64,000 nucleotides of DNA, from positions 642,732 through 706,731 of the forward strand of contig JACKFO010000002.1 in the NCBI GenBank assembly GCA_020632415.1. Reading direction: 5' to 3'. This document shows, one piece after another, positions 7,921 through 46,653 of this stretch. The translations under genes were made by a program, and so were the position numbers. The notes under the pieces were generated by a model. The model was not told where the DNA came from. It did no database searches and saw only the letters and a program-made list of their open reading frames with translations. Each line of letters opens with the position of its first letter. Position 1 is the first letter of the stretch. The DNA is from Candidatus Nomurabacteria bacterium. Its GTDB lineage: Bacteria > Patescibacteriota > Patescibacteriia > UBA1558 > GWA2-36-10.

Positions 7921-8059
7921 TCTAAAAAATTTATAGATTAACCTAAAAAAATATTTTTTTCAAAAAATTTTACAAAAAAAACAAAAATACTATTCTCTTT
8001 TTAAAAAAATTATGTTATAATTTCTTTGTTATAAAAAAGTTTTTTTAAAAAAATAATTT

Positions 8060-8326
8060 ATGACTTTTGGAAAATTTATTTTAGGAATTTTAATTGCCGT
8101 CGGGGGTTTCTTTGTTACTTGGAAATCAGAATGGCTCTTAAGAAACTTCGGTCGAATTCCATTTGCTGAAAAATATTTAGGTGGTGAGGGCGGCACTCGT
8201 TTAATGTATAAATTAATTGGTATCTTATTTATCATTATCGGCCTGATGTACGCTACAGATTTAACAGACAATTTAATTGCTAAAATAGTCAATCTAGTCT
8301 TCAAAACTAACATTACAGTCGAATAA
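8060..8326 (+). CDS. small membrane protein (2 TM), hypothetical
   Basis: 88 aa with two hydrophobic segments; -10-like ttataat upstream. Confidence 0.4.
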   Translation: MTFGKFILGILIAVGGFFVTWKSEWLLRNFGRIPFAEKYLGGEGGTRLMYKLIGILFIIIGLMYATDLTDNLIAKIVNLVFKTNITVE

Positions 8327-8408
8327 ACCTTTGTCCTATTGCTCAAAGCAATGAGATAAGGCGAAAATAAAAATATTATCTTAAAAAAAGAAAGGGGGTG
8401 AAAATAAA

Positions 8409-8615
8409 ATGCCAGCAAAGAAAAAAGTTGCAAAAAAACCAGTTGCTAAGAAAAAAGTAACTAAAAAGAAAGTTGCAAAAAAACCAGTTGCTAAGAAAAA
8501 AGTAACTAAAAAGAAAGTTGCAAAAAAACCAGTTGCTAAGAAAAAAGTAACTAAAAAAAGAGTCGCCAAAAAAGCTGCTCCAAAAAAAAGAAAAGCTACT
8601 CGCAAAAAGAAATAG
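8409..8615 (+). CDS. lysine-rich histone H1-like/Hc-like DNA-binding protein built from (KKVAKKPVAKKKVTK)x3 repeats
   Basis: Strong RBS aaaggggg 8 nt before the ATG; three perfect 45-nt tandem DNA repeats encode KK(V/P)AKK units. Confidence 0.55.
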   Translation: MPAKKKVAKKPVAKKKVTKKKVAKKPVAKKKVTKKKVAKKPVAKKKVTKKRVAKKAAPKKRKATRKKK

Positions 8616-8681: not shown

Positions 8682-9947
8682 TTAAAATAAACTTTTTTGC
8701 TGATTAATCTTAGCTAACTTCTGTTCTTCTTCGGAAAAAATTTCTATCTTTCCATACTGACCATCAAAGCCAGGAATTAATTTCAATTTATTTTCTCGCA
8801 TCCTAATAATGCCTAAAGCTAAATTTTCTGGCATTATTTTTTTTAAATCTGCAAAAGAAAGATCTAATAAAACTTCAAATTCATTTTTAGCATGGCTCAA
8901 AATATCAAAAAACAAAGTCTGCACTTTTTTACTATTACGTGACATGCCAAAATAATCAGCCAATAAATCTGGCAAAGGAACAATACTTTTATAAGGAATG
9001 TGTTTACTTTTCTCTACCTCCTCTTTTTTAAGATCCGCCAAAGCAAAAACTCTACTTTCTACGCCAATAGTAAGCGGCTTTTTACATTTTGGACAAATAT
9101 TTTTATATTTTTTACTTTCTTCTGGCGAACAAGAAAAATTACAAGTTCGATGACCATCAAAATGATACATCCCTTCTTCGGGAAAAAATTCTATTGTATA
9201 CAAAAACTTCTTTTTATTTTTAGTTTTAATAATTTCTACTATTTCATCGTAGGTATTTTCTTCTAAATCCATCACGTTTGCTTCACGTCCAATGTGTGGT
9301 CCCGAATGAGCATCGGAATTTGAAACCAAAGTAATTTGATCAAGCTGAGATAATTGCCAATTCATAATCGGATCAGAAGAAAGCCCAGTTTCAATTGCTT
9401 TAATGTATGGCGTAAGATCTTCAAAACATTCTTCCAAAGAATCAAAGCCAGATTTTGAACCAAAAACCGCAAACCATGGCGTCCAAGCGTGAGCCGGAAT
9501 CATCATTGCTCTTTCGTCTGTTTCAAGCATAATTTCCAAAACCTGTTTAGCGGACATGCCTAAGATTGGTCTCCCGTCAGAAGCAAGTTTAGCTCCGCGA
9601 TCACTCAAAGCTTGGTTAAACTTTTCAGCGGCTTGTAAACTTGGCATCAAAATACAAAGATGCACCCGGCGAGTCTGATCATTTTGTCGATAAATGCAAG
9701 AAATTTCCGTGGAAATTAAAAAACGGACAGTCGACTGAACGTCTTTTAATTTGTATAAACCCGAATTACCATCTTCAATTAAATGATTTTTTAGTTCCTT
9801 AAACCAAGCTGGATGCGTGAAATCAGCGCAAGAGACAATGTCTACGCCCTTTATTTCTGACCACTTGACCATCTCTGCCAAATCAAAATATTTAGAAGTA
9901 GCTCGAGCGTATTTAGAATGAATATGTAAATCTATGATCTTTTTCAT
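8682..9947 (-). CDS. PHP-domain endonuclease Q (EndoQ)-like protein with zinc-ribbon
   Basis: MKKIIDLHIHSKYARATS...CADFTHPAWFKEL matches the EndoQ/TIGR00375 N-terminal PHP motifs; C-x2-C ... CPKC zinc ribbon present; start taken at internal MKKII (M12 of the track ORF). Confidence 0.5.
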   Translation of the reverse strand: MKKIIDLHIHSKYARATSKYFDLAEMVKWSEIKGVDIVSCADFTHPAWFKELKNHLIEDGNSGLYKLKDVQSTVRFLISTEISCIYRQNDQTRRVHLCILMPSLQAAEKFNQALSDRGAKLASDGRPILGMSAKQVLEIMLETDERAMMIPAHAWTPWFAVFGSKSGFDSLEECFEDLTPYIKAIETGLSSDPIMNWQLSQLDQITLVSNSDAHSGPHIGREANVMDLEENTYDEIVEIIKTKNKKKFLYTIEFFPEEGMYHFDGHRTCNFSCSPEESKKYKNICPKCKKPLTIGVESRVFALADLKKEEVEKSKHIPYKSIVPLPDLLADYFGMSRNSKKVQTLFFDILSHAKNEFEVLLDLSFADLKKIMPENLALGIIRMRENKLKLIPGFDGQYGKIEIFSEEEQKLAKINQQKSLF

Positions 9948-9948
9948 T

Positions 9949-10470
9949 CTATTTTGCAAAAAAATTAGCGTGCTCTCCAATTTTTAATCCATTTTGTTTT
10001 TCACCAACGTCAATAGGAATTTGTTTGCCATTTAAACTAAGTAATAAATAATGATGAATAACGAAATTCAAAAAAGTTAACTTGATTTTTATATCTTCTT
10101 GTTTAAAAAAATCACTGCGCACTAAAAATATTTTGAAAATAAAACTACTTTGATGACAAGGCACAAAGCCGTCAATTTGCCAAATTTGTTCTAAATTTTT
10201 AAACCATAGCTGTGGCTTTAATAAAGTATTCCAACGCTCTGAATGATATTTATTGCCTAAATAATCATAAGTTAAGTCTAAAAATTCTTCCGGAGAACCA
10301 GCGCTATTCTTCAATTCATTTATCTTATCTTCCATGCTCTCAGGAATATCATTTGGTACTGATATTTTTCTAAAACCAAAATGTGGAATCAAAAAATAAG
10401 CAAACAAAAAAATAGCTAATAAATACCCAATAAATGCGATTAAAAACCAAATGATAATCATATAATACAT
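9949..10470 (-). CDS. membrane-anchored hypothetical protein, co-directional with and immediately upstream of the EndoQ-like gene
   Basis: 173 aa, N-terminal TM helix; stop abuts the EndoQ start. Confidence 0.4.
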   Translation of the reverse strand: MYYMIIIWFLIAFIGYLLAIFLFAYFLIPHFGFRKISVPNDIPESMEDKINELKNSAGSPEEFLDLTYDYLGNKYHSERWNTLLKPQLWFKNLEQIWQIDGFVPCHQSSFIFKIFLVRSDFFKQEDIKIKLTFLNFVIHHYLLLSLNGKQIPIDVGEKQNGLKIGEHANFFAK

Positions 10471-10688: not shown

Positions 10689-10877
10689 CGTCCTCGAAAA
10701 AATAAATTTATAAATCGAAACATCGTTTCCTAACCTAATACTATTTGATTGATCGGCGTGAATAACATCACGACACCCAATAATAATATCAAGCCAATGA
10801 AAAGTAAAACGATTTTAATCATTTAAACAATGTTTAAGAACAAAAAATTTGTATAAAAATTTCCAAAATTTTTAGTG

Positions 10878-13995
<3,118 letters not shown>

Positions 13996-14366: not shown

Positions 14367-14395
14367 ATTATATACTATTTTTCATAGCTTGTCAA
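14367..14395 (-). promoter_or_regulatory. consensus sigma70 promoter (TTGACA-17-TATAAT) on the minus strand, about 370 nt upstream of 23S
   Basis: Reverse complement of 14367-14395 reads ttgaca agctatgaaaaatagta tataat. Confidence 0.45.
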
Positions 14396-14499
14396 ACCCT
14401 TTTGATAGCTGGGAATTTAGCTTAAATTCTCAATAAAAATCAATAAAAACAAGAGATAATTAAGGGGCTCTGATTTTCATCAAAGCCCGAGTATTTTTT

Positions 14500-14643
14500 T
14501 CAAGTGACTAATCGCCCAATTGAACGCCAAAGCCAAAATGGCAATCGCGATCATGATGGTAGCGAATGGCGGTTGCCACGTCACCAGAATGCCAACGAAA
14601 ACCCAAGCAAGCAATTTGTAATGTCGCCGATTCAACTTAAACA
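14500..14643 (-). CDS. 48-aa hydrophobic peptide in GC-rich island (hypothetical)
   Basis: Minus-strand ORF MFKLNRRHYKLLAWVFVGILVTWQPPFATIMIAIAILALAFNWAISHL with aaggag RBS; not in the ORF track because it is under 60 aa; coordinates hand-counted. Confidence 0.25.
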
Positions 14644-14699
14644 TCTTCTGCTCCTTGTTCTAGACAATGAACTAACTCTTTTATTAAAAGACAAATCTT

Positions 14700-14749
14700 A
14701 TCATCTAATAAAAGAGTCCGAAGTGTCCCTGCTGAGCAGAAACACTTCG
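14700..14749 (-). terminator. hairpin terminator after the GC-rich two-gene module
   Basis: ccgaagtgt...acacttcgg 9-bp stem with nested tgct/agca; T-rich on the minus strand after the stem. Confidence 0.35.
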
Positions 14750-14772
14750 GCACATTGAAGTTGGAGCGCTAG

Positions 14773-14967
14773 TCACCGAAGTCCTCGACAGACCTCGTAG
14801 AACTCACTGAAGCCCTCCTCCAGCAGTTCACTGAAGCTCGGTCCATCGGAACTTCCTCTTCCGACTCGCCTCATGAGTGGATCGCCTCCATTGGCCGTGA
14901 CGTTCTTCCGTGGAGAAGCGGGTGGTTGTGGGTGTTGTGAGTACATCTGTTTCGTGTCCTTGGCCAT
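14773..14967 (-). CDS. 64-aa hypothetical protein (GC-rich island)
   Basis: Internal start MAKDTKQMYSQHP... preceded by ggaggaagg RBS; begins 26 nt after the stop of the 183-aa gene. Confidence 0.35.
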   Translation of the reverse strand: MAKDTKQMYSQHPQPPASPRKNVTANGGDPLMRRVGRGSSDGPSFSELLEEGFSEFYEVCRGLR

Positions 14968-14992
14968 CGTTCCTTCCTCCATGCTGCAAACT

Positions 14993-15544
14993 TCAATCAA
15001 GTAAGCTCGTTTGGGCGACTTGTGCTGACATGTCAACGTTCGCCTTGCGCAAGATGCGTAAAGCAAAACCAGAAACCAACTCCGCACGAGAAGCACCGGT
15101 CAAAGCACAATCAAGCGCTCGACCAATGTCCTCCTTGCTGATCTTTCGATCTAACTCTGGAAACTCTTCGAGGATCCTTCTGATCACTTCGATTAACCTT
15201 TCAGCTTCTTTCTCTGCTTTGCGATAAGCGACTTGTTTCGGTTCATCGGGAATTCCCGCTAAGAACACCCGAACTTCCGCATCGCCAGCTTTGGACAAGT
15301 CAACGTCCAAAGATTGCCCGGCGACTCGGCCTCTCGGAAACTCGATGCCAGCTAGACTTCGCGCTGACGTCAAATCTCCTACGTTACCAAACGCTTGAAC
15401 AAATCCCTCCACTTGCATCATGCGATTCAATCGCGGAAGCAAGTATTCGCTCAAGCGAGTGCCTTTAAAACCAAGCCCCTTGCCTTCGCGAATCAAAGCC
15501 TCAACCTCTGCACGATGAGCTTTTAACCATTCAACGCGTGTCAT
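14993..15544 (-). CDS. 183-aa hypothetical protein (GC-rich island, no recognisable domain)
   Basis: Long ORF in a region of markedly elevated GC; protein composition is plausible (not antisense-like); no family recognised by eye. Confidence 0.5.
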   Translation of the reverse strand: MTRVEWLKAHRAEVEALIREGKGLGFKGTRLSEYLLPRLNRMMQVEGFVQAFGNVGDLTSARSLAGIEFPRGRVAGQSLDVDLSKAGDAEVRVFLAGIPDEPKQVAYRKAEKEAERLIEVIRRILEEFPELDRKISKEDIGRALDCALTGASRAELVSGFALRILRKANVDMSAQVAQTSLLD

Positions 15545-15683
15545 GTTGCTTGCTCCAAGTTATTACATTCAAGTTTGCAACTTGAATATGTTAATGTTCA
15601 GCTCTTTCCTTAAAATAATTTCCAAAAAACTATTCTAAGGAAAAAGGAGCTTAAGTTAATAAGCTCTTTTTTCTATTTTAATT

Positions 15684-16172
15684 TTATAAAATCTCCATTT
15701 TTAAATATTTAGCGCCGAATTTAATCGACTCAGCTTTATCAGCCATCCAAATATCCATCCGGTAATAATAACGAGAATTCATTCGATCTTCGACGACGAA
15801 AATTTTGTCACCAAATTCATCAGGAAATCTGACTAAAGTTCCTTTTGGTAAAAAGTTAGTAGCCACAATACCATCACGCACATGAGTATTAAAAGCAGTA
15901 ATAAAAGGAGAATCGTCAGTTTGACCAGGCTCACTATTATAAGAAGTAACAATAATATTCATGGTTGTTTTAGCCAAACGATCGCCACTTTCTGGTAAAG
16001 TAGGCTCACCATAGTGACTTTTTAAGACATTTTCAGCTCTTGGGCCAGTATTAGCGCTAGTTTCACTTTGAGAAAATACAGCTTGTGGAAAGTCAAAAAT
16101 CACTAAAATAGCCAAGATTGTCCCTAAAATAACCGTTTTATTCAATTTTCCTTGATTTTGTGTAAAATTCAT
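15684..16172 (-). CDS. secreted 3D-domain protein (MltA/YuiC-like, cell-wall associated)
   Basis: Signal/TM N-terminus; C-terminal TSYNSEPGQTDDSP...DGIVAT...GTLVRFPDEFGDKIFVVEDRM...MDIWM fits the 3D domain pattern. Confidence 0.55.
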   Translation of the reverse strand: MNFTQNQGKLNKTVILGTILAILVIFDFPQAVFSQSETSANTGPRAENVLKSHYGEPTLPESGDRLAKTTMNIIVTSYNSEPGQTDDSPFITAFNTHVRDGIVATNFLPKGTLVRFPDEFGDKIFVVEDRMNSRYYYRMDIWMADKAESIKFGAKYLKMEIL

Positions 16173-26382: not shown

Positions 26383-27861
<1,479 letters not shown>

Positions 27862-28177
27862 AAATAAAGTTTGCACATCTTGCTAAAAGATGTGTTTGGC
27901 TCGAGTTGTTACTCGAAATATGATTGACTTGTCCAAACTTTTAGTTGGACAATAAAATTTAAAAATTGACTTATGGTTTAACTAAAAACGGTTCACTTTT
28001 TAGTTGTCAAATATTTATTTGTCAAAAAACATTGTTTTTCTTGCTTATAGATAGCTTCTAAAGTTCAAGAAAAAACAGCAATGTCCAAAGACCTTAGACA
28101 CTTCTGTTTTTTCTCGGGTGCAACTCCCTTAATTTCTTTGTAAATCAGCTACGACTTTATTTTTTTAATGCTCCCGT

Positions 28178-33040: not shown

Positions 33041-33086
33041 TAAAACAAAAAGAAAAATCGCTCAGTTCACAAAGGACACTGAGCGA
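33041..33086 (-). terminator. intrinsic terminator on the minus strand, immediately upstream of smc
   Basis: atcgctcagt/actgagcgat 10-bp stem; on the minus strand it is followed by tttttctttttgtttt. Confidence 0.45.
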
Positions 33087-33640
33087 TCGCAGCAGTTGTG
33101 CCGATCCACGGGGACCGGTCCGCCAAAACACCCAGTCGGGTGGTAGTGGCCAAAGGTAGCGGAAGGCGGCGCGGGGTTGAACGAATTCAGACTCGTCAAA
33201 ACGCGAACGAGAAGCCTCGCACCTCACCTTTGCAGTCGCGTCAACAGCCCGCAAGGCCTCTCGTGTTTACCACGAAATAGGAGGTTCCAATGGCATCGAA
33301 CGGTTGTGCGCCACCTTCCGCATTTTCTTTTCTTGCTAAAGAGCCAAGAAGACTTATTTAGTATAAGATCAGAAAAGAAAATTGTCAAATATATATTTAA
33401 ACAAAAGAAAAACTGCCCAGTTCTCAAGGAACTCTGGGCAGCTTGGGGGGCCTCTTTCGAGGCGTCGTCGCAGCAGCAGAAAGCCGGGGCACAGGGAGCG
33501 TCACACACACAGGTCGGTAGGAAGTTATCTGGAAAAGTCCAGGCGGACTTTTGGCTGCAAAATAAGGAAGGAGCACAAAATCATTATCAAAATACACGAA
33601 AACAATTATTTTGTCAAGACCAACAAAAAACTCATCTGTC
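33087..33640 (-). ncRNA. GC-rich, ORF-poor region: candidate structured RNA gene(s) of unknown class
   Basis: G+C far above flanks; only overlapping, biased-composition ORFs on both strands; bounded by three minus-strand intrinsic terminators (33041-86, 33398-440, 33641-79). Confidence 0.25.
33398..33440 (-). terminator. intrinsic terminator on the minus strand inside the GC-rich island
   Basis: ctgcccag/ctgggcag 8-bp stem followed on the minus strand by tttttcttttgttt. Confidence 0.4.
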
Positions 33641-38895: not shown

Positions 38896-39125
38896 AGCTA
38901 AAAATTTAATTACAGAAAAAATCCTTCTAAAAAATCCGTAAAAGAAAAATCGATCGCTTTCAGAAAAAAGAAAATTGCCAAAACTAACAAAATTGGTGCC
39001 CAAGGTAAGTTAGCGGCAATTGAAACTGGCATTTCCACAAATAATCCGTGTAAAATATCTCTCATTTTTTTTAAAATTAAGCAATTTTAATATACTCTCT
39101 TCTCTTTTTAATTTCAAGCAAACCA

Positions 39126-39154
39126 TTGACAAAATTTATAATTTATCCTATTAT
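39126..39154 (+). promoter_or_regulatory. sigma70-like promoter (TTGACA-17-TATTAT) upstream of the GC-rich membrane gene
   Basis: ttgaca aaatttataatttatcc tattat. Confidence 0.35.
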
Positions 39155-39193
39155 AAATTAATTTTGCACATCTTCAAACTCAAGGAGAATCCG

Positions 39194-39769
39194 GTGGAAA
39201 ACCTCTTCTTTTTCCTAGATTGGAAGCTCTTGTTTGCTTCCTTCATCCTGAACACACTGGCCATCTGCGCCATGTTGATCGTCCAGTGGTGCGAAAGCAC
39301 TTCAGGAGTGATCAGACCAAGACACCACATAATCCCCAGCACCAAGCAGAAGTTCCTCTACTGGCAGGACTTCTACTGCCAAAAGTGGGGTAACGTCTGG
39401 GGCATGCCTCTGATGCTCTACCCTACGATGTTCCTTTACAAGTACAACTGCCTAGATTCCTGGTCGCTCTTGTTCGCGTTGCTGGCAATTCTTGCCACCA
39501 GAGCATTCTTCAAAGAATGCACAAAGAAGACACATAAGCCGGATTGGGGCTACCCCAAGCCAGGAGAACACAGCTTCAGCGGAACACTCCACTTGACCTA
39601 CTTTGGGTTTTATATCTTTGTCGTGATCACCTCGATCTATTCCATGATCAGAGGCTACCTGGTCCGAGAAGAAATCTTCGTTTTCTTCCTCGGTGCGACG
39701 ATCTACATCGCAACCTGGGTCAAAGACGTCAGGTCTGGTAACTTCGCCAAACTGGAGAAAATCCATTGA
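39194..39769 (+). CDS. 191-aa polytopic membrane protein in GC-rich island (hypothetical, GTG start)
   Basis: aaggag RBS 6 nt before the GTG at 39194 (in frame with the track ORF 39020..39769); 4-5 TM; Cys/Trp/His rich; no family recognised. Confidence 0.45.
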   Translation: MENLFFFLDWKLLFASFILNTLAICAMLIVQWCESTSGVIRPRHHIIPSTKQKFLYWQDFYCQKWGNVWGMPLMLYPTMFLYKYNCLDSWSLLFALLAILATRAFFKECTKKTHKPDWGYPKPGEHSFSGTLHLTYFGFYIFVVITSIYSMIRGYLVREEIFVFFLGATIYIATWVKDVRSGNFAKLEKIH

Positions 39770-39843
39770 AAACCCTCCGTTTCCTGAATCAGCTCTGGGG
39801 CTGGTTCAGTCATGGCGAGCTTCACTGGTAAGCTCAGCTCCTC

Positions 39844-39880
39844 CCTCTGCGTACGCGAGCACGCAGAGGGATTTTTTTTA
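39844..39880 (+). terminator. GC-rich intrinsic terminator
   Basis: ccctctgcgt/acgcagaggg 10-bp stem followed by atttttttta. Confidence 0.5.
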
Positions 39881-42664
39881 TTTACTAAACTTTTTCTTTA
39901 ACGAAAAAATAATTAACAAAATTAAACTGCCGCAAATTATAAACAATAAATTCTTTTTTATTTTTTCACTCCGCAGATCATTTTCTACCTGATAAACTTC
40001 TTCGCTAATTTCTACTTGTTTGTTTGGCTCTTTGTTTATTGCTGCTTCTACTTTTTGAGCAAACTGCAAATCATTTTTATTCAAAGGCAATAATTTAAAT
40101 CCACTACTGGTTTCAGACAAAATTCCAGCAACAATCATTTCTTGACCTTTGCTGATTTCTAAATCACTTAAATCAAAATTTGCATAAACGCGCACTTGCC
40201 AATCCTCTTCTTCTTCGCTAGCCAAATAAATATTCTTGCCACTTTTTTTGACAATAATTCCCTTGAGATGCAAAAAGTCTCCTAATAAATCTTCACTCAA
40301 ATCATCGGTAGAAATTAATTCTGGCGCTGCCAAATCCAAATGAAACTCAGTTTTTAAAAGATCTTCTTTGCTTTTTATTTTTACTCGTGGCAAAGGATCC
40401 AGTTTTGAAATTTCACCAGACACTTCCACAAGATCTCCCGCTTTTATTTCGGGCCAATCTTTTTTGCTAAAATAAATCTCCACTGGTTGATCATAATAAA
40501 TTTCCTCTTGGTCCCAATCTACTAAATATAAACTTGCGCTTTTTGGATTAGCATCATTGATTGCTAGGCCCTGCAAAATAACATTGGCTTTTATTTTTTG
40601 ATCATAAATAGCTGGCGGATTTAAAAGGCTAAAACCAGCAACGTCTTGTTTAGCTTGATTTACAGATCCTGGACTAGCTTGCTTATTGACAAACCATTCT
40701 AAATTCTCAAAATCCCAAGCGTACGATTGTCCTTCGGGAATTTTATTATAATTTACTTCCTGCCAAACTTCTTGCAATGGGTTTAATAAACGCACACTAT
40801 CTTCTGAATTATTTAAAGTAACGCCTGTTTCTGAACGAGAAAAAATCTTGAACTCACCCGGCAAAATAATTGTGCTGGTCGCAAATAAGTATGGCCGACT
40901 ACCACCATCTTGGTCATCCAAATACCAACCCAGCAAATCTATTGGTTCTGAAAAATTATTACAAACTTCAATCCATTCACCGTCATCAGAGCCGACTGGA
41001 TTTGGAATAAACTCAGAAATAATCAAGTCTCCAAGCTCAAAATTTATTACTTGGATGTTTTTTATTTCTAAATTATTCTCTGCCTCAAAAATATTTAACA
41101 ATAAACTAGCCTCGCCGCTCAAACCTTCGCTGTCGCTAACTTTTAACTTTACTAAATAATTTCCAGCTGCCGAGTATTGATGATTTTCTATTTTTTCATC
41201 ACCAGAAGTTTCGTCACCAAAGTCCCAAAAATATTCTAGCGTTCCTTCTTCGGGATCAGAAGAATCTTCTGCTGATAATTTAATTTTTTCACCAACTAAA
41301 AAATTTTCTGACAACAACTTAATTACTGCCTCCGGCGCAAGATTTGCTACAAAAATATTTTCCGTTCCAGGAGTCAATTCTGCGGTCCACAAAAAATTAT
41401 TCTGAAAAATATTTTCTCGGGCATAACTTTTGTTTTCTAAGGCTGTATCAATGTATGAAATTTGTTCCAACAAACTTCCTTCTGGATCATAAAGCTTGAC
41501 GGCATCACCTCCGGCATTATTCAAAGAAACTCCCGTAACACTTTTTTCTAAAACCAAATAAGTGTTAGCGCCAATGCTGAGATTGTCATCTTCAGAAATT
41601 GTAAATATTCGCGCTGAGTTATCTTGCAAAGCAAAACCACTCAAATCTATTCTTTGTTCTCCTTTGTTATAAAGCTCAATCCACTCACCATCATCAACTC
41701 CAGTTGGATTTGGTAAAAACTCGGAGACAATAATGTCTTGCCAATGATTTTGCGGCGGCGGATTTCCGCCGCCGTTATTACCGCCACCATTTTCTCCACC
41801 CCCACCATCTTCCTCCTCTTGATCTTCTGCTGTCACAGTCACCAAACAACTAGCATAAGCTTCTAATTCGCCATTGGAAACAGTCAAACTAACATTGTAA
41901 TTATTTGCTTCCACAAAAGTATGGGTCGCTTGCACTGTTGTTATCGTTGTACCGTCCAAAAAATCCCAAAGATAAGTAAGCGGTAAATTTTGCGGATCAA
42001 TCGATTGAGAAGCGTCAAATAAACCCTCTTCTCCAAGGAGCAAGCTTGTCGGACAAATAGCTACAGCAAGCGGCTGATCGCTCTCTTCTCCACTACCATC
42101 GTCGTGACTATTTTCTAAGCCTGGCGTGCCACCAATGACAAAACTTTCTTGCCAATTTTCTGGACTTGAGTCTTGATTTAAATTTATTTTTTCTAGACTT
42201 TTGCCAGATCCCGATCCACCCCAAGCCGAATCATAAGTAGCTTGAATTAAATAAGTCTCTCCGCCATCGAAACTTAAAGCCAGTTCTCCTGTTGTATTTG
42301 CCAAACTCATTACTGTATCAAAAACCGTGCCAGAAAATTCTGGATAGTCTTGCAAAAATTGCTCAGCATCTGCCGCGATTATAAAATATTCTCCTGGCAC
42401 AATTAAATTATCTTCACCTTGCGCTAAATTTAAAGTATGATTTGTGCCGTCAAAAAAACGCCAAGTATCAGAACCCGCGCCCGTCAAAACTTCGATCTCC
42501 TCATTGCCGCTATTAAAAATTTCAACCCACTCATGTCCAGCGTCACCACCAGATAAATCATACATGATTTCGGAAATCAACAAATCAGCTTCTGTTGCCT
42601 GCGCTATTTTGGTCGCGCTAAAAACTAGCAAGCATATGATGCTTAACAAAACCGCTTTCTTCAT
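39878..42664 (-). CDS. large secreted surface protein with lamin-tail-like (LTD) domains, PKD domain(s) and C-terminal TM anchor
   Basis: Signal peptide; repeated LISEIMYD..GHEWVEIFNSG / IISEFLPNPTGVDDGEWIELYN / IISEFIPNPVGSDDGEWIEVCN motifs (LTD); PLTYLWDFLDGTT...YNVSLTV (PKD); Gly-rich linker; C-terminal hydrophobic helix plus KKKFSK. Confidence 0.6.
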   Translation of the reverse strand: MKKAVLLSIICLLVFSATKIAQATEADLLISEIMYDLSGGDAGHEWVEIFNSGNEEIEVLTGAGSDTWRFFDGTNHTLNLAQGEDNLIVPGEYFIIAADAEQFLQDYPEFSGTVFDTVMSLANTTGELALSFDGGETYLIQATYDSAWGGSGSGKSLEKINLNQDSSPENWQESFVIGGTPGLENSHDDGSGEESDQPLAVAICPTSLLLGEEGLFDASQSIDPQNLPLTYLWDFLDGTTITTVQATHTFVEANNYNVSLTVSNGELEAYASCLVTVTAEDQEEEDGGGGENGGGNNGGGNPPPQNHWQDIIVSEFLPNPTGVDDGEWIELYNKGEQRIDLSGFALQDNSARIFTISEDDNLSIGANTYLVLEKSVTGVSLNNAGGDAVKLYDPEGSLLEQISYIDTALENKSYARENIFQNNFLWTAELTPGTENIFVANLAPEAVIKLLSENFLVGEKIKLSAEDSSDPEEGTLEYFWDFGDETSGDEKIENHQYSAAGNYLVKLKVSDSEGLSGEASLLLNIFEAENNLEIKNIQVINFELGDLIISEFIPNPVGSDDGEWIEVCNNFSEPIDLLGWYLDDQDGGSRPYLFATSTIILPGEFKIFSRSETGVTLNNSEDSVRLLNPLQEVWQEVNYNKIPEGQSYAWDFENLEWFVNKQASPGSVNQAKQDVAGFSLLNPPAIYDQKIKANVILQGLAINDANPKSASLYLVDWDQEEIYYDQPVEIYFSKKDWPEIKAGDLVEVSGEISKLDPLPRVKIKSKEDLLKTEFHLDLAAPELISTDDLSEDLLGDFLHLKGIIVKKSGKNIYLASEEEEDWQVRVYANFDLSDLEISKGQEMIVAGILSETSSGFKLLPLNKNDLQFAQKVEAAINKEPNKQVEISEEVYQVENDLRSEKIKKNLLFIICGSLILLIIFSLKKKFSK

Positions 42665-45342: not shown

Positions 45343-45371
45343 TTGACAAAATATATATTATGTGATATAAT
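45343..45371 (+). promoter_or_regulatory. consensus sigma70 promoter (TTGACA-17-TATAAT) upstream of the GC-rich 315-aa gene
   Basis: ttgaca aaatatatattatgtga tataat. Confidence 0.45.
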
Positions 45372-45448
45372 TGTATATTGGCCGATTCACTACGAATTAG
45401 CCAACAGCTCCTTGCAACTTATAACTTTTTGCAGAAGGGATTGAAATC

Positions 45449-46396
45449 ATGACCGCCAACCATCATCCTTCCCTCCCGACCGCCGAAGAAATCAGCCACC
45501 ACTGCGTCGCGGCAGCCTACAAGGCAGTCGGCAAGGGCAACCCCTGGCGCAATGCTGCCTGGCATGCCCTGCAGGACTACGCCACCGAGCATCACGGCTA
45601 CGACCGCGATGACCGGTGGCAGACCGCCCAGCTGCGTCGACGCTTCTATGCCACGGCCAACTGCGGTTCCCCCGAGAACATGCTCAAGACCAAGATCCGC
45701 CAGCTGAACCTCGGGGGGCTGACCATGAGCCAGGCTCTGGCAACGCTCTATCACGATCCGCTTCTCGACCTGATCGATGGTGAAGGCCACTTCTGGCTCA
45801 ACAAGCTGAGTGAGGAAGAGGGTCTGAACTGGGCCGAACCGCACACCAAGAACCAACTGAAGCAGCTCGCCCCCAAGAAAGCCTCGCCGAGACCGCTTTC
45901 GCCTCAACGACGCTTTGTGCTCCGAATCAAGGAACTGCAGGACGATCTCGACCTCAGTCGACGAGAAGCCTACAAGAAGATCCATGCCGAATTCGCAGGT
46001 GAACTCGAGCGGGATCGCGGGCTCTTCATGACGCACTGGCCTTTCGACGAAGAAGAGCTTTCGGCCCTGGTCACGATGTTCGAAGAAGACACCAACAAGA
46101 TCCCGAAGCTCCACCGCCGCGAACTCTTCGGCTTCCTGATCACCGAGCAGATCACCGATCCGGGTGATCCGCGCGAGATGCAGAAGTTTGTAGAGACCTT
46201 CCTCAAGGTCAGTCCACTGCCGCTGGACGAGCTGAAAGCCGAGATCGAGAAAGGCTACCGAATCGCTGGCTTCAATCGTCCCTATGTGAGGGCTCAAGTG
46301 GAAAAAAGCTTCCGCGATCGGCTGCTCCCAGGCGAATTCGATCACGTCTTCGACAAGATCTGGCGTGACTGCGTCACGCTCGGACTCACTGGCTAG
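45449..46396 (+). CDS. 315-aa hypothetical soluble protein in GC-rich island
   Basis: aaggga RBS; protein has normal composition while the opposite-strand ORF (45419..46345) has antisense-like Leu/Val/Gly/Arg bias; followed by a strong terminator; no family recognised. Confidence 0.55.
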   Translation: MTANHHPSLPTAEEISHHCVAAAYKAVGKGNPWRNAAWHALQDYATEHHGYDRDDRWQTAQLRRRFYATANCGSPENMLKTKIRQLNLGGLTMSQALATLYHDPLLDLIDGEGHFWLNKLSEEEGLNWAEPHTKNQLKQLAPKKASPRPLSPQRRFVLRIKELQDDLDLSRREAYKKIHAEFAGELERDRGLFMTHWPFDEEELSALVTMFEEDTNKIPKLHRRELFGFLITEQITDPGDPREMQKFVETFLKVSPLPLDELKAEIEKGYRIAGFNRPYVRAQVEKSFRDRLLPGEFDHVFDKIWRDCVTLGLTG

Positions 46397-46408
46397 CTTC
46401 CTCCTGCT

Positions 46409-46464
46409 GCCCGCTCACTGCAAGCAAACCTTGTGTTTGTCTTGCGATGAGCGGGCTTTTTTTA
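46409..46464 (+). terminator. GC-rich intrinsic terminator
   Basis: gcccgctca...tgagcgggc with inner gcaag/cttgc, then ttttttta. Confidence 0.5.
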
Positions 46465-46530
46465 TTTGACAAAATAATTTAAAAATTCTAAGCTTTTCTA
46501 AATTGCACGCCAGCAGTTTTTGGAGGAAAA

Positions 46531-46653
46531 ATGCTAGAACAAGTCAGGCTCTACATCGACCAACACTTGGGACAATTCCTGCCAGTCTTGCTGATGCTCT
46601 CTCTTCCTTTGATCGCCGTGATCAGAAACAAAATAAGGCGGAAGAAAGCTTAG
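46531..46653 (+). CDS. 40-aa hydrophobic peptide (hypothetical)
   Basis: ggagga RBS 6 nt upstream; MLEQVRLYIDQHLGQFLPVLLMLSLPLIAVIRNKIRRKKA; followed by its own terminator. Confidence 0.25.
   Translation: MLEQVRLYIDQHLGQFLPVLLMLSLPLIAVIRNKIRRKKA

Follow-up and report, generated by a model that had tools for sequence, protein, structure and literature searches.

Flexible genomic islands, additive or replacement, are found at conserved chromosomal hotspots, and the cassettes of integrons, like those of the clusters of attC sites lacking an integrase (CALINs), are bounded by attC sites of 57-141 nt. Genomes of the candidate phyla radiation (CPR, Patescibacteria) are tiny and streamlined, little is known about how their accessory genes are acquired or varied, and our literature search on CPR integrons or variable islands found nothing relevant. 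Here we analyze a locus in a 64,000-nt stretch of DNA, referred to below as the window (contig JACKFO010000002.1, positions 642,732 to 706,731 of the forward strand), from the ~842 kb genome of a Candidatus Nomurabacteria bacterium of this group. Between the gene of a 3D domain-containing protein and the promoter of the 23S rRNA gene, the window holds a GC-rich segment with open reading frames (ORFs) of 183, 64 and 54 codons. We read this segment, with a probability of about 0.55, as the genome's own version of a clade-specific, recombination-driven cassette island that lies between the terminator of the 3D-domain gene and the 23S promoter. Each cassette would consist of one or two orphan ORFs followed by a GC-rich intrinsic terminator and an AU-rich junction hairpin, and cassettes would be gained, lost, reordered and replaced by recombination anchored on the conserved junctions and flanks, a process that would leave near-identical genomes with different or highly diverged cassettes. 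The array in the window would then comprise two cassettes, the first with the 183-aa protein and a probably decayed 64-codon acidic ORF, and the second with a 54-aa membrane peptide.

The locus has a constant frame. In the window, where all features of the locus are on the minus strand, the left flank is the cell-wall gene of the 162-aa 3D-domain protein (15684..16172; NCBI name, 3D domain-containing protein), followed by an intrinsic-terminator-like hairpin (15647..15666, terminator scan). The right border is the 23S promoter TTGACA-17-TATAAT (14367..14395), which agrees with the sigma-70 consensus at 12/12 positions in the promoter scan and is followed, ~370 nt downstream, by the 23S rRNA gene (10873..13994; Rfam LSU_rRNA_bacteria, 2549 bits). 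The spacers between the 3D-domain gene and 23S were collected from relatives with the 3D-domain protein as a probe. This gene is a conserved anchor, with homologs directly upstream of an island or of 23S rRNA in 14 loci. In the outgroup loci L012, L013 and L014 it stands directly before the 23S promoter, and the ~520 nt between the 3D-domain gene and 23S hold only the rRNA promoter and leader (23S itself is reached in L012 and L013, while the L014 contig stops before it); the promoter is kept in filled and empty loci alike. These empty loci, together with a GC content of 0.46-0.53 over ~14550-15560 as against 0.29-0.37 in the flanks and 0.366 in the whole window, bear out the proposal of an initial annotation that a GC-rich segment was inserted next to the 23S promoter.

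What lies inside this frame is variable. Islands measure 0.3-2.9 kb, and their genes are GC-richer than the flanks in every lineage. A member of the family of the 183-aa protein (hereafter the family) is accompanied by a transmembrane (TM) peptide in L007, by a 63-aa ORF and a TM peptide in L005, by a two-TM peptide in L006/L018, and by a 71-aa acidic ORF and a different two-TM peptide in L002, the content of which recurs in L001 with an additional 195-aa gene; in L001 and L002 the gene order is reversed. Other islands are without the family: L017 has a 70-aa acidic ORF and a TM peptide, L011 has a 17-codon remnant of the acidic ORF and a TM peptide, and L009/L010 and L008 have unrelated orphan ORFs, three or four of them, that mostly encode membrane proteins. 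Around every family member the synteny is the same: genes for DsbD, a thioredoxin reductase-like protein, VKOR, two DsbA-like proteins and an MGMT-like protein on one strand precede the 3D-domain gene, which is followed by the island and 23S rRNA.

Close relatives reveal how this content changes. The flanks of L001 and L002, including the 23S region, are 95-100% identical, whereas the stretch from the two-TM peptide through the family gene is 52-80% identical; the borders of the divergence are sharp, and an ~880-nt indel holds the 195-aa gene. Synonymous divergence (dS) between the two is 1.19 in the family gene versus 0.10 in the adjacent 3D-domain gene. The same pattern of near-identical flanks around diverged cassettes is seen between L005 and L011. 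Compared with the closely related L005 and L017, L011 has lost the family, which indicates that the family is dispensable. As judged from these alignments, the locus undergoes allelic replacement and cassette turnover at a fixed site. Mutagenesis of the family gene as the target of a diversity-generating retroelement was considered and rejected: the mismatches are distributed evenly among the four nucleotides and along the entire gene, with enrichment at third codon positions, so that the divergence lacks the adenine bias of such a system, and no reverse-transcriptase-like ORF was seen in the locus.

The composition of the segment also invites a simpler explanation, in which a prophage or mobile-element remnant was recently acquired from a GC-richer donor in a single horizontal transfer and has no special architecture. 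The GC content of the segment and its GC content at third codon positions (GC3) are far above those of the host, and its ORFs are orphans, as such a transfer would predict. However, homologous genes occupy the same locus in several diverged relatives, no homologs outside the clade are present among 1.84 billion representative proteins, and IMG/VR contains no match to the proteins or to the junction motifs. The search for inverted and direct repeats found no direct repeats flanking the island, and no integrase was seen there either. A one-off acquisition is therefore very improbable. Under the cassette-island reading, the raised GC content might instead reflect cassettes circulating in a separate gene pool, or a GC bias associated with recombination.

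Two further features of the relatives' loci deserve mention. A conserved leader-like element, in which TGGGAGAGRGT..TAAGYAAAGAT leads into a terminator-like hairpin and T-run and these in turn into GGTAAATGTAGARGA...CTTCTACAGTTATTT, stands before unrelated first cassettes in L009 (6660-6945), L008 (6545-6800) and L001 (4985-5130). It lies behind consensus promoters in L008 and L009, is not in Rfam, and is possibly a regulatory RNA, either an attenuator or riboswitch-like. In addition, the L008 and L010 metagenome-assembled genomes, which carry a Patescibacteria-type locus, are titled 'uncultured Gammaproteobacteria bacterium', probably a taxonomic mislabel.

The first gene of the array (14993..15544) encodes a 183-aa, all-helical cytoplasmic orphan protein. 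A HMMER search with this protein against the 1.84 billion representative proteins returned as credible relatives only P0002 (189 aa, 57% identity over the full length), P0004 and P0006 (both longer), to which a profile search added P0009 and P0010, both of 261 aa. Four other HMMER matches (P0003, P0005, P0007 and P0008) were rejected as spurious when their sequences were read, being repetitive, eukaryote-like sequences with multi-repeat low complexity. The family is thus tiny, ranges from 183 to 261 aa, is confined to close relatives and always resides at the locus between the 3D-domain gene and 23S. In its long members a C-terminal helical module of ~60 aa is duplicated. The N-terminus is conserved in the alignment (M1, T2, W6, L7), which shows that the start of the 183-aa ORF is right and that the NCBI gene call (MCB9803028.1 / H6761_03385), which covers only the C-terminal 141 aa, is truncated. 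Between close alleles the ratio of nonsynonymous to synonymous divergence (dN/dS) is 0.23-0.25, third codon positions hold a disproportionate share of the mismatches, and gap lengths are divisible by 3. Along the ORF, the in-frame signal is clear in a codon model trained on the cassette genes of relatives, and GC3 in the family is 0.42-0.52 versus 0.24-0.29 in neighboring genes. On the strength of its homologs, dN/dS and codon signal, the 183-aa ORF is a real gene under purifying selection, located exactly where the initial annotation had placed it.

That annotation was also right that the protein has no family signature. Pfam, PHROGs, PADLOC and NCBIfam contain nothing that matches the ORF above curated thresholds. 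The AlphaFold2 model of a 261-aa member is all-helical (predicted local distance difference test score, 75.8) and has no match in the PDB by Foldseek, as was also the case for a PDB sequence profile. The conserved residues of the family (W, P, D, F, K, E, L, C, R) are not catalytic-looking, and the alignment is without a conserved block of 7-10 residues.

Two repeats flank the 183-aa gene in the window. Its 5' leader contains a near-perfect palindrome, ATTCAAGTT-GCA-AACTTGAAT (15560..15594; inverted-repeat search and fold), which was not seen in the leaders of relatives and is specific to this lineage. A related half-site, ATTGAAGTTTGCAGC, follows right after the stop codon (14980-15004), so that palindrome and half-site bracket the ORF (25 nt, 76% complementary).

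The hydrophobic peptide beyond the terminator had been noted as a 48-aa product with an AAGGAG site. The ORF and its Shine-Dalgarno site stand, and the product is 54 aa (14480..14644). It has a basic N-terminus, two TM helices separated by a WQPPF loop, and a C-terminal KKILGL. Homologs in L005, L011, L017, L007 and L009 have in common the basic N-terminus, the two TM helices and a C-terminal ..KK(I/L/R)LGL, and the gene shows dN/dS of 0.25-0.48 and a clear in-frame codon signal, evidence on which we take it to be a real gene. Its stop codon lies inside a terminator hairpin, GGGCTTTGATGAAAATCAGAGCCC (14465..14488, terminator scan), that is nearly invariant in relatives. The gene is missing from the public annotation, and in L005 the gene caller picked a wrong-frame 81-aa ORF in its place. 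The nearest Pfam entry is PGPGW (PF09656), which is of the same two-TM hairpin size class but differs in the loop, where the peptide has WQPPF instead of PGPGW. The match (18.4 bits, E = 0.0015) does not reach the gathering threshold of 23.3 bits and appears in only 1/8 related peptides.

The 64-codon ORF (14773..14967, from the ORF list) is a different matter. It begins 25 nt after the stop codon of the 183-aa gene, and its strong Shine-Dalgarno site (GGAGGAAGG) is as first described. However, the codon model gives it no coding signal (-0.09 in frame, where the small acidic ORFs from relatives score between +0.18 and +0.25), and it has no clear homolog. The 63-aa ORF that L005 has in this place is not significantly similar to it, the C-terminal part of the 70-aa ORF of L017 matches it only marginally (p ~0.03 before multiple-testing correction), and L007 lacks a counterpart; no annotation source calls it as a gene. 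Its status as a gene is doubtful, and it is possibly a decayed remnant of the small acidic ORF found at this position in relatives.

These results bear directly on whether the ORFs could be spurious, that is, chance ORFs in GC-rich non-coding DNA or in a structured RNA, or the product of misassembly. GC-rich DNA does give long chance ORFs in several frames here, and the 64-codon ORF, devoid of coding signal, fits such an account. In contrast, the 183-aa and 54-aa genes have homologs, dN/dS below 0.5, a frame-specific codon signal and frame-preserving indels. The island region has no Rfam match, and a segment 100% identical to that of the window occurs in two independent Logan assemblies, so it is not an assembly artefact. 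This explanation, highly improbable for the segment as a whole, is refuted for the 183-aa and 54-aa genes and left standing for the 64-codon ORF only. The initial annotation had named a lack of homologs and coding signal as grounds for abandoning its reading; both are present for the 183-aa and 54-aa genes, and the coding signal is absent from the 64-codon ORF.

The element shared by the filled loci is a junction, which consists of a GC-rich terminator and then a conserved AU-rich hairpin of ~45 nt. Directly after the 3D terminator, every filled locus has a hairpin CTTTTTCCTTAGAAYAR-loop-ATTRTTTTAAGGAAAGAG, the window copy of which, j1 (CTTTTTCCTTAGAATAG...ATTATTTTAAGGAAAGAG, 15600..15647; covariance model, 50.7 bits, E = 1.7e-11), bounds the cassette array on its left side. 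Between cassettes, a related hairpin comes after the GC terminator, both in the window (j2, CTCTTTTATTAGATGATAAG...TTGTCTTTTAATAAAAGAG, 14674..14717; 48.5 bits, E = 7e-11) and in L001, L002, L006, L008 and L009, and in all filled loci a GC terminator hairpin precedes each junction hairpin. The terminator that ends the first cassette of the window (14750-14718; 15 bp and a T-run, terminator scan) is the one predicted after the 64-codon ORF in the initial annotation; it is homologous to the GC hairpin within the junctions of L001, L002 and L006, with compensatory changes in the stem. The fold of 14645-14800 has a z-score of -6.7.

Conservation of the junction hairpin is structural. Its 13 copies align to a 17-bp stem in which 11/17 pairs show compensatory double changes, 96% of the cells are paired versus 77% in shuffles (0/500 shuffles were as high), and one G.U pair is conserved. 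The wobble pairs on the sense strand point to a hairpin formed in RNA or in single-stranded DNA of the top strand. The covariance model scores above 45 bits only within islands and only on the gene-sense strand, with exactly two strong matches in the 64-kb window and none in empty loci. The 3' arm of j2 is identical to the L001 junction at 17/18 positions, whereas the family proteins are only 29% identical, and thus the junctions are far more constrained than the genes that they separate. In L001, the 195-aa gene has a junction copy on each side, and the two copies are 100% identical across 57 nt. Such a duplication around an inserted cassette is what would be expected from insertion by recombination within the junction. 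The hairpin may serve expression, through processing or insulation after the terminator, it may serve recombination, or it may do both. As a structured repeat not in Rfam, it is a candidate new RNA or DNA structural element.

Some variants of the junction and its surroundings were also noted. The first junction hairpin of L005 (5868-5956) has an extra GC-rich hairpin of ~45 nt, CCCGCCTACGGCGGG, in its loop, and the model still scores it at 36 bits. On the 1.5-kb contig L019, a junction-type hairpin (1289-1333, 32.7 bits) lies behind the gene of a 296-aa membrane protein rather than a 3D-domain gene, which may represent the junction element in another context. A weak promoter-like site (TTAACT-16-TAGAAT, promoter scan) overlaps j1. 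A promoter role for the TTGAnA box that follows the junctions was rejected on inspection, given that no usable -10 element comes after it.

The architecture is reminiscent of an integron, in which the junction hairpins would be attC-like and the recombinase would be encoded elsewhere in the genome. The small orphan cassettes all point in one direction and are bounded by an imperfect hairpin that is conserved in structure and asymmetric between strands, the L001 cassette is flanked by duplicated junctions, and the composition of the cassettes is unlike that of the host genome. However, across six islands, searched on both strands, no junction has a complementary pair of RYYYAAC/GTTRRRY core sites 45-150 nt apart, and the hairpin is shorter than the known attC sites. 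Furthermore, no integrase-like ORF was found in or next to any island (the island ORFs scanned, from the window, L001, L008 and L009, have no Pfam match above threshold), some recombination borders lie away from the junctions, and a terminator forms part of every junction, an arrangement unlike that of the promoterless cassettes of integrons. Taken together, we consider a site-specific system of this kind improbable. Only slightly better are the odds we give to a bolder variant, in which the junction would be the recombination site of an undescribed cassette-capture system of CPR/Patescibacteria, a functional analogue of integrons with different sites, served by other machinery or by homologous recombination only. 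Were this so, a private pool of GC-rich orphan genes would be fed into a fixed slot next to the strong 23S promoter.

The initial annotation had regarded the three ORFs as one tight module reminiscent of toxin-antitoxin (TA), immunity or small defense systems. The module did not survive the comparison: doubt attaches to the middle ORF, relatives combine the components independently of one another, and the terminator and junction hairpin between the first two ORFs and the third mean that the three do not form one tight unit. With regard to function, a TA, abortive-infection or immunity system is unlikely in our judgment, and so, to the same degree, is its more specific form, in which the two-TM peptide would be a membrane-damaging effector restrained by the helical protein, the acidic ORF or mRNA structure. 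In its favor, the locus is hypervariable with presence/absence polymorphism, as is typical of conflict systems, every family-bearing island also has a small two-TM peptide (7/7 island types), and the predicted fold pairs the Shine-Dalgarno sequence of the peptide gene (AAGGAGC) with an upstream GCUCC across two hairpins, which is reminiscent of type I toxin mRNAs. However, neither this pairing, which is just 5 bp long, nor the order and spacing of the genes is conserved in relatives, and a terminator separates the putative partners. Moreover, L011, L017 and L009 have the peptide but not the family, L011 and L009 also lack an intact acidic ORF (that of L017 has 70 aa), and L007 and L006/L018 have the family but not an acidic ORF, so that the family and the acidic ORF do not always occur as a pair in other genomes.

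Database searches gave no direct evidence for such a system, with no match to a TA or defense family. The island proteins of every lineage lack a PADLOC, Pfam, NCBIfam or PHROG match above threshold; for the cargo proteins of relatives, searched in Pfam and PADLOC, the single PADLOC match was negligible (E = 0.037), and PADLOC-DB 2.0 has no match to the window proteins or to P0010. A type II TA domain was found in none of the 183-, 64- and 54-aa products by Pfam, NCBIfam, PADLOC or PHROGs (the sub-threshold PGPGW is not a TA domain), and neither the obligate co-occurrence nor the fixed order of type II pairs is seen, given the contents of L007, L006/L018, L011, L017 and L009 and the reversed order in L001/L002. 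The likeness to type I TA systems is that the peptide is hydrophobic, shorter than 60 aa, and preceded by a structured region that may occlude its Shine-Dalgarno site. It differs in being a two-TM hairpin and in its unconserved Shine-Dalgarno pairing, and no evidence of an antisense RNA or its promoter was found. No Rfam family of type I toxin or antitoxin RNAs reached threshold in the window, where ohsC appeared at another position with E = 4.

Returning to the cassette island, the analysis directly shows real genes, a variable locus, junction hairpins of conserved structure, and one case of junction duplication around an inserted cassette. Context, composition and topology lead us to infer that the cassettes encode accessory factors which are strain-specific, can be dispensed with and act at the membrane. 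The small membrane peptide would be the common element, and the soluble partner proteins would be add-ons acting with or on it. The hypervariability and turnover are compatible with a conflict-type role, whether exclusion, immunity or TA-like, but do not demonstrate one. Several points weigh against the cassette-island reading. No recombinase or mobility gene was seen among the island ORFs, and the breakpoints between L001 and L002 are not all at junction hairpins, as the left border is the 3' end of the 71-aa gene. The junction hairpin could also be an RNA-level expression element only. The array of the abundant L009-type lineage is identical across eight samples, which implies that turnover is episodic. 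Finally, the assignment of function draws on context, composition and topology only, with no homology to a specific activity.

Even so, the locus offers a compact, well-delimited slot of orphan-gene exchange between lineages. It supplies a defined orphan family and a partner membrane peptide for functional tests, and is a natural setting in which to ask whether cassettes in these symbionts turn over by site-specific or by homologous recombination. The public annotation, in which the 183-aa gene was truncated to 141 aa and the peptide gene was missed, is corrected as well.

Elsewhere in the window, further GC-rich tracts were observed. The strongest is a second island at 45351-46550, with GC up to 0.655, which holds a protein-like 315-aa orphan ORF (45449-46396, plus strand) and an antisense 308-aa ORF, with no Pfam matches and no junction hairpins. 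Another, at 39020-39900 (GC up to 0.525), overlaps a 249-aa hydrophobic ORF without a Pfam match. At 33050-33560, two adjacent GC-rich units (GC up to 0.59) begin with similar hairpins, CGCTCAGTTCACAAAGGACACTGAGCG and CTGCCCAGTTCTCAAGGAACTCTGGGCAG, and a long closing helix (GCGGAAGGCGGCGC...GCGCCACCTTCCGC), with a T-run, stands at the end of the first. The ORFs in these units are not protein-like, no Rfam match was obtained at E<=0.01, no transfer-messenger RNA was found, and the fold has a z-score of -2.5, which makes the region a candidate unannotated structured RNA. A tandem repeat at 8421-8573 (3.3 copies of a 45-nt unit with a 15-nt sub-period, 96% matching) is rich in lysine codons and lies between the ORFs 8029-8433 and 8682-9980. 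As for the rRNA genes, the 23S match spans 3122 nt versus a model of 2925 nt, which suggests insertions, and the 23S of relatives measures between 2793 and 3120 nt. The 16S (26383-27867) and 23S (10873-13994) genes are unlinked, ~12 kb apart, and four tRNAs follow the 16S.

How the island relates to known systems depends on which of its features is compared. As repeated hairpins behind genes and next to terminators, with a conserved paired structure, the junctions resemble repetitive extragenic palindromic sequences and bacterial interspersed mosaic elements, but they are found at one locus per genome rather than dispersed, both copies in the 64-kb window being in the island. With integrons and CALINs the island shares tandem, co-oriented small cassettes, mostly orphans, whose content varies between close relatives and whose composition differs from that of the host, as well as a structure-conserved, strand-specific imperfect palindrome that bounds the cassettes and is duplicated around an insertion. 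It differs in having no R''/R' core sites, no integrase in view and a hairpin of ~45 nt after a separate GC terminator, and in that its cassettes appear to be individually terminated and occupy a fixed chromosomal site by the 23S promoter. The likeness to flexible genomic islands lies in the conserved flanks (the 3D-domain gene and the rRNA promoter), the coexistence of empty and filled states, the orphan cargo, and the highly diverged alleles in otherwise near-identical genomes. Compared with these, however, the locus is very small (0.3-2.9 kb), belongs to a reduced CPR genome of ~0.84 Mb, and has its own internally repeated structured junction element. The island would thus be a new variant of flexible-island and cassette-array biology in CPR, and a more interesting one if its junctions prove to be recombination sites.

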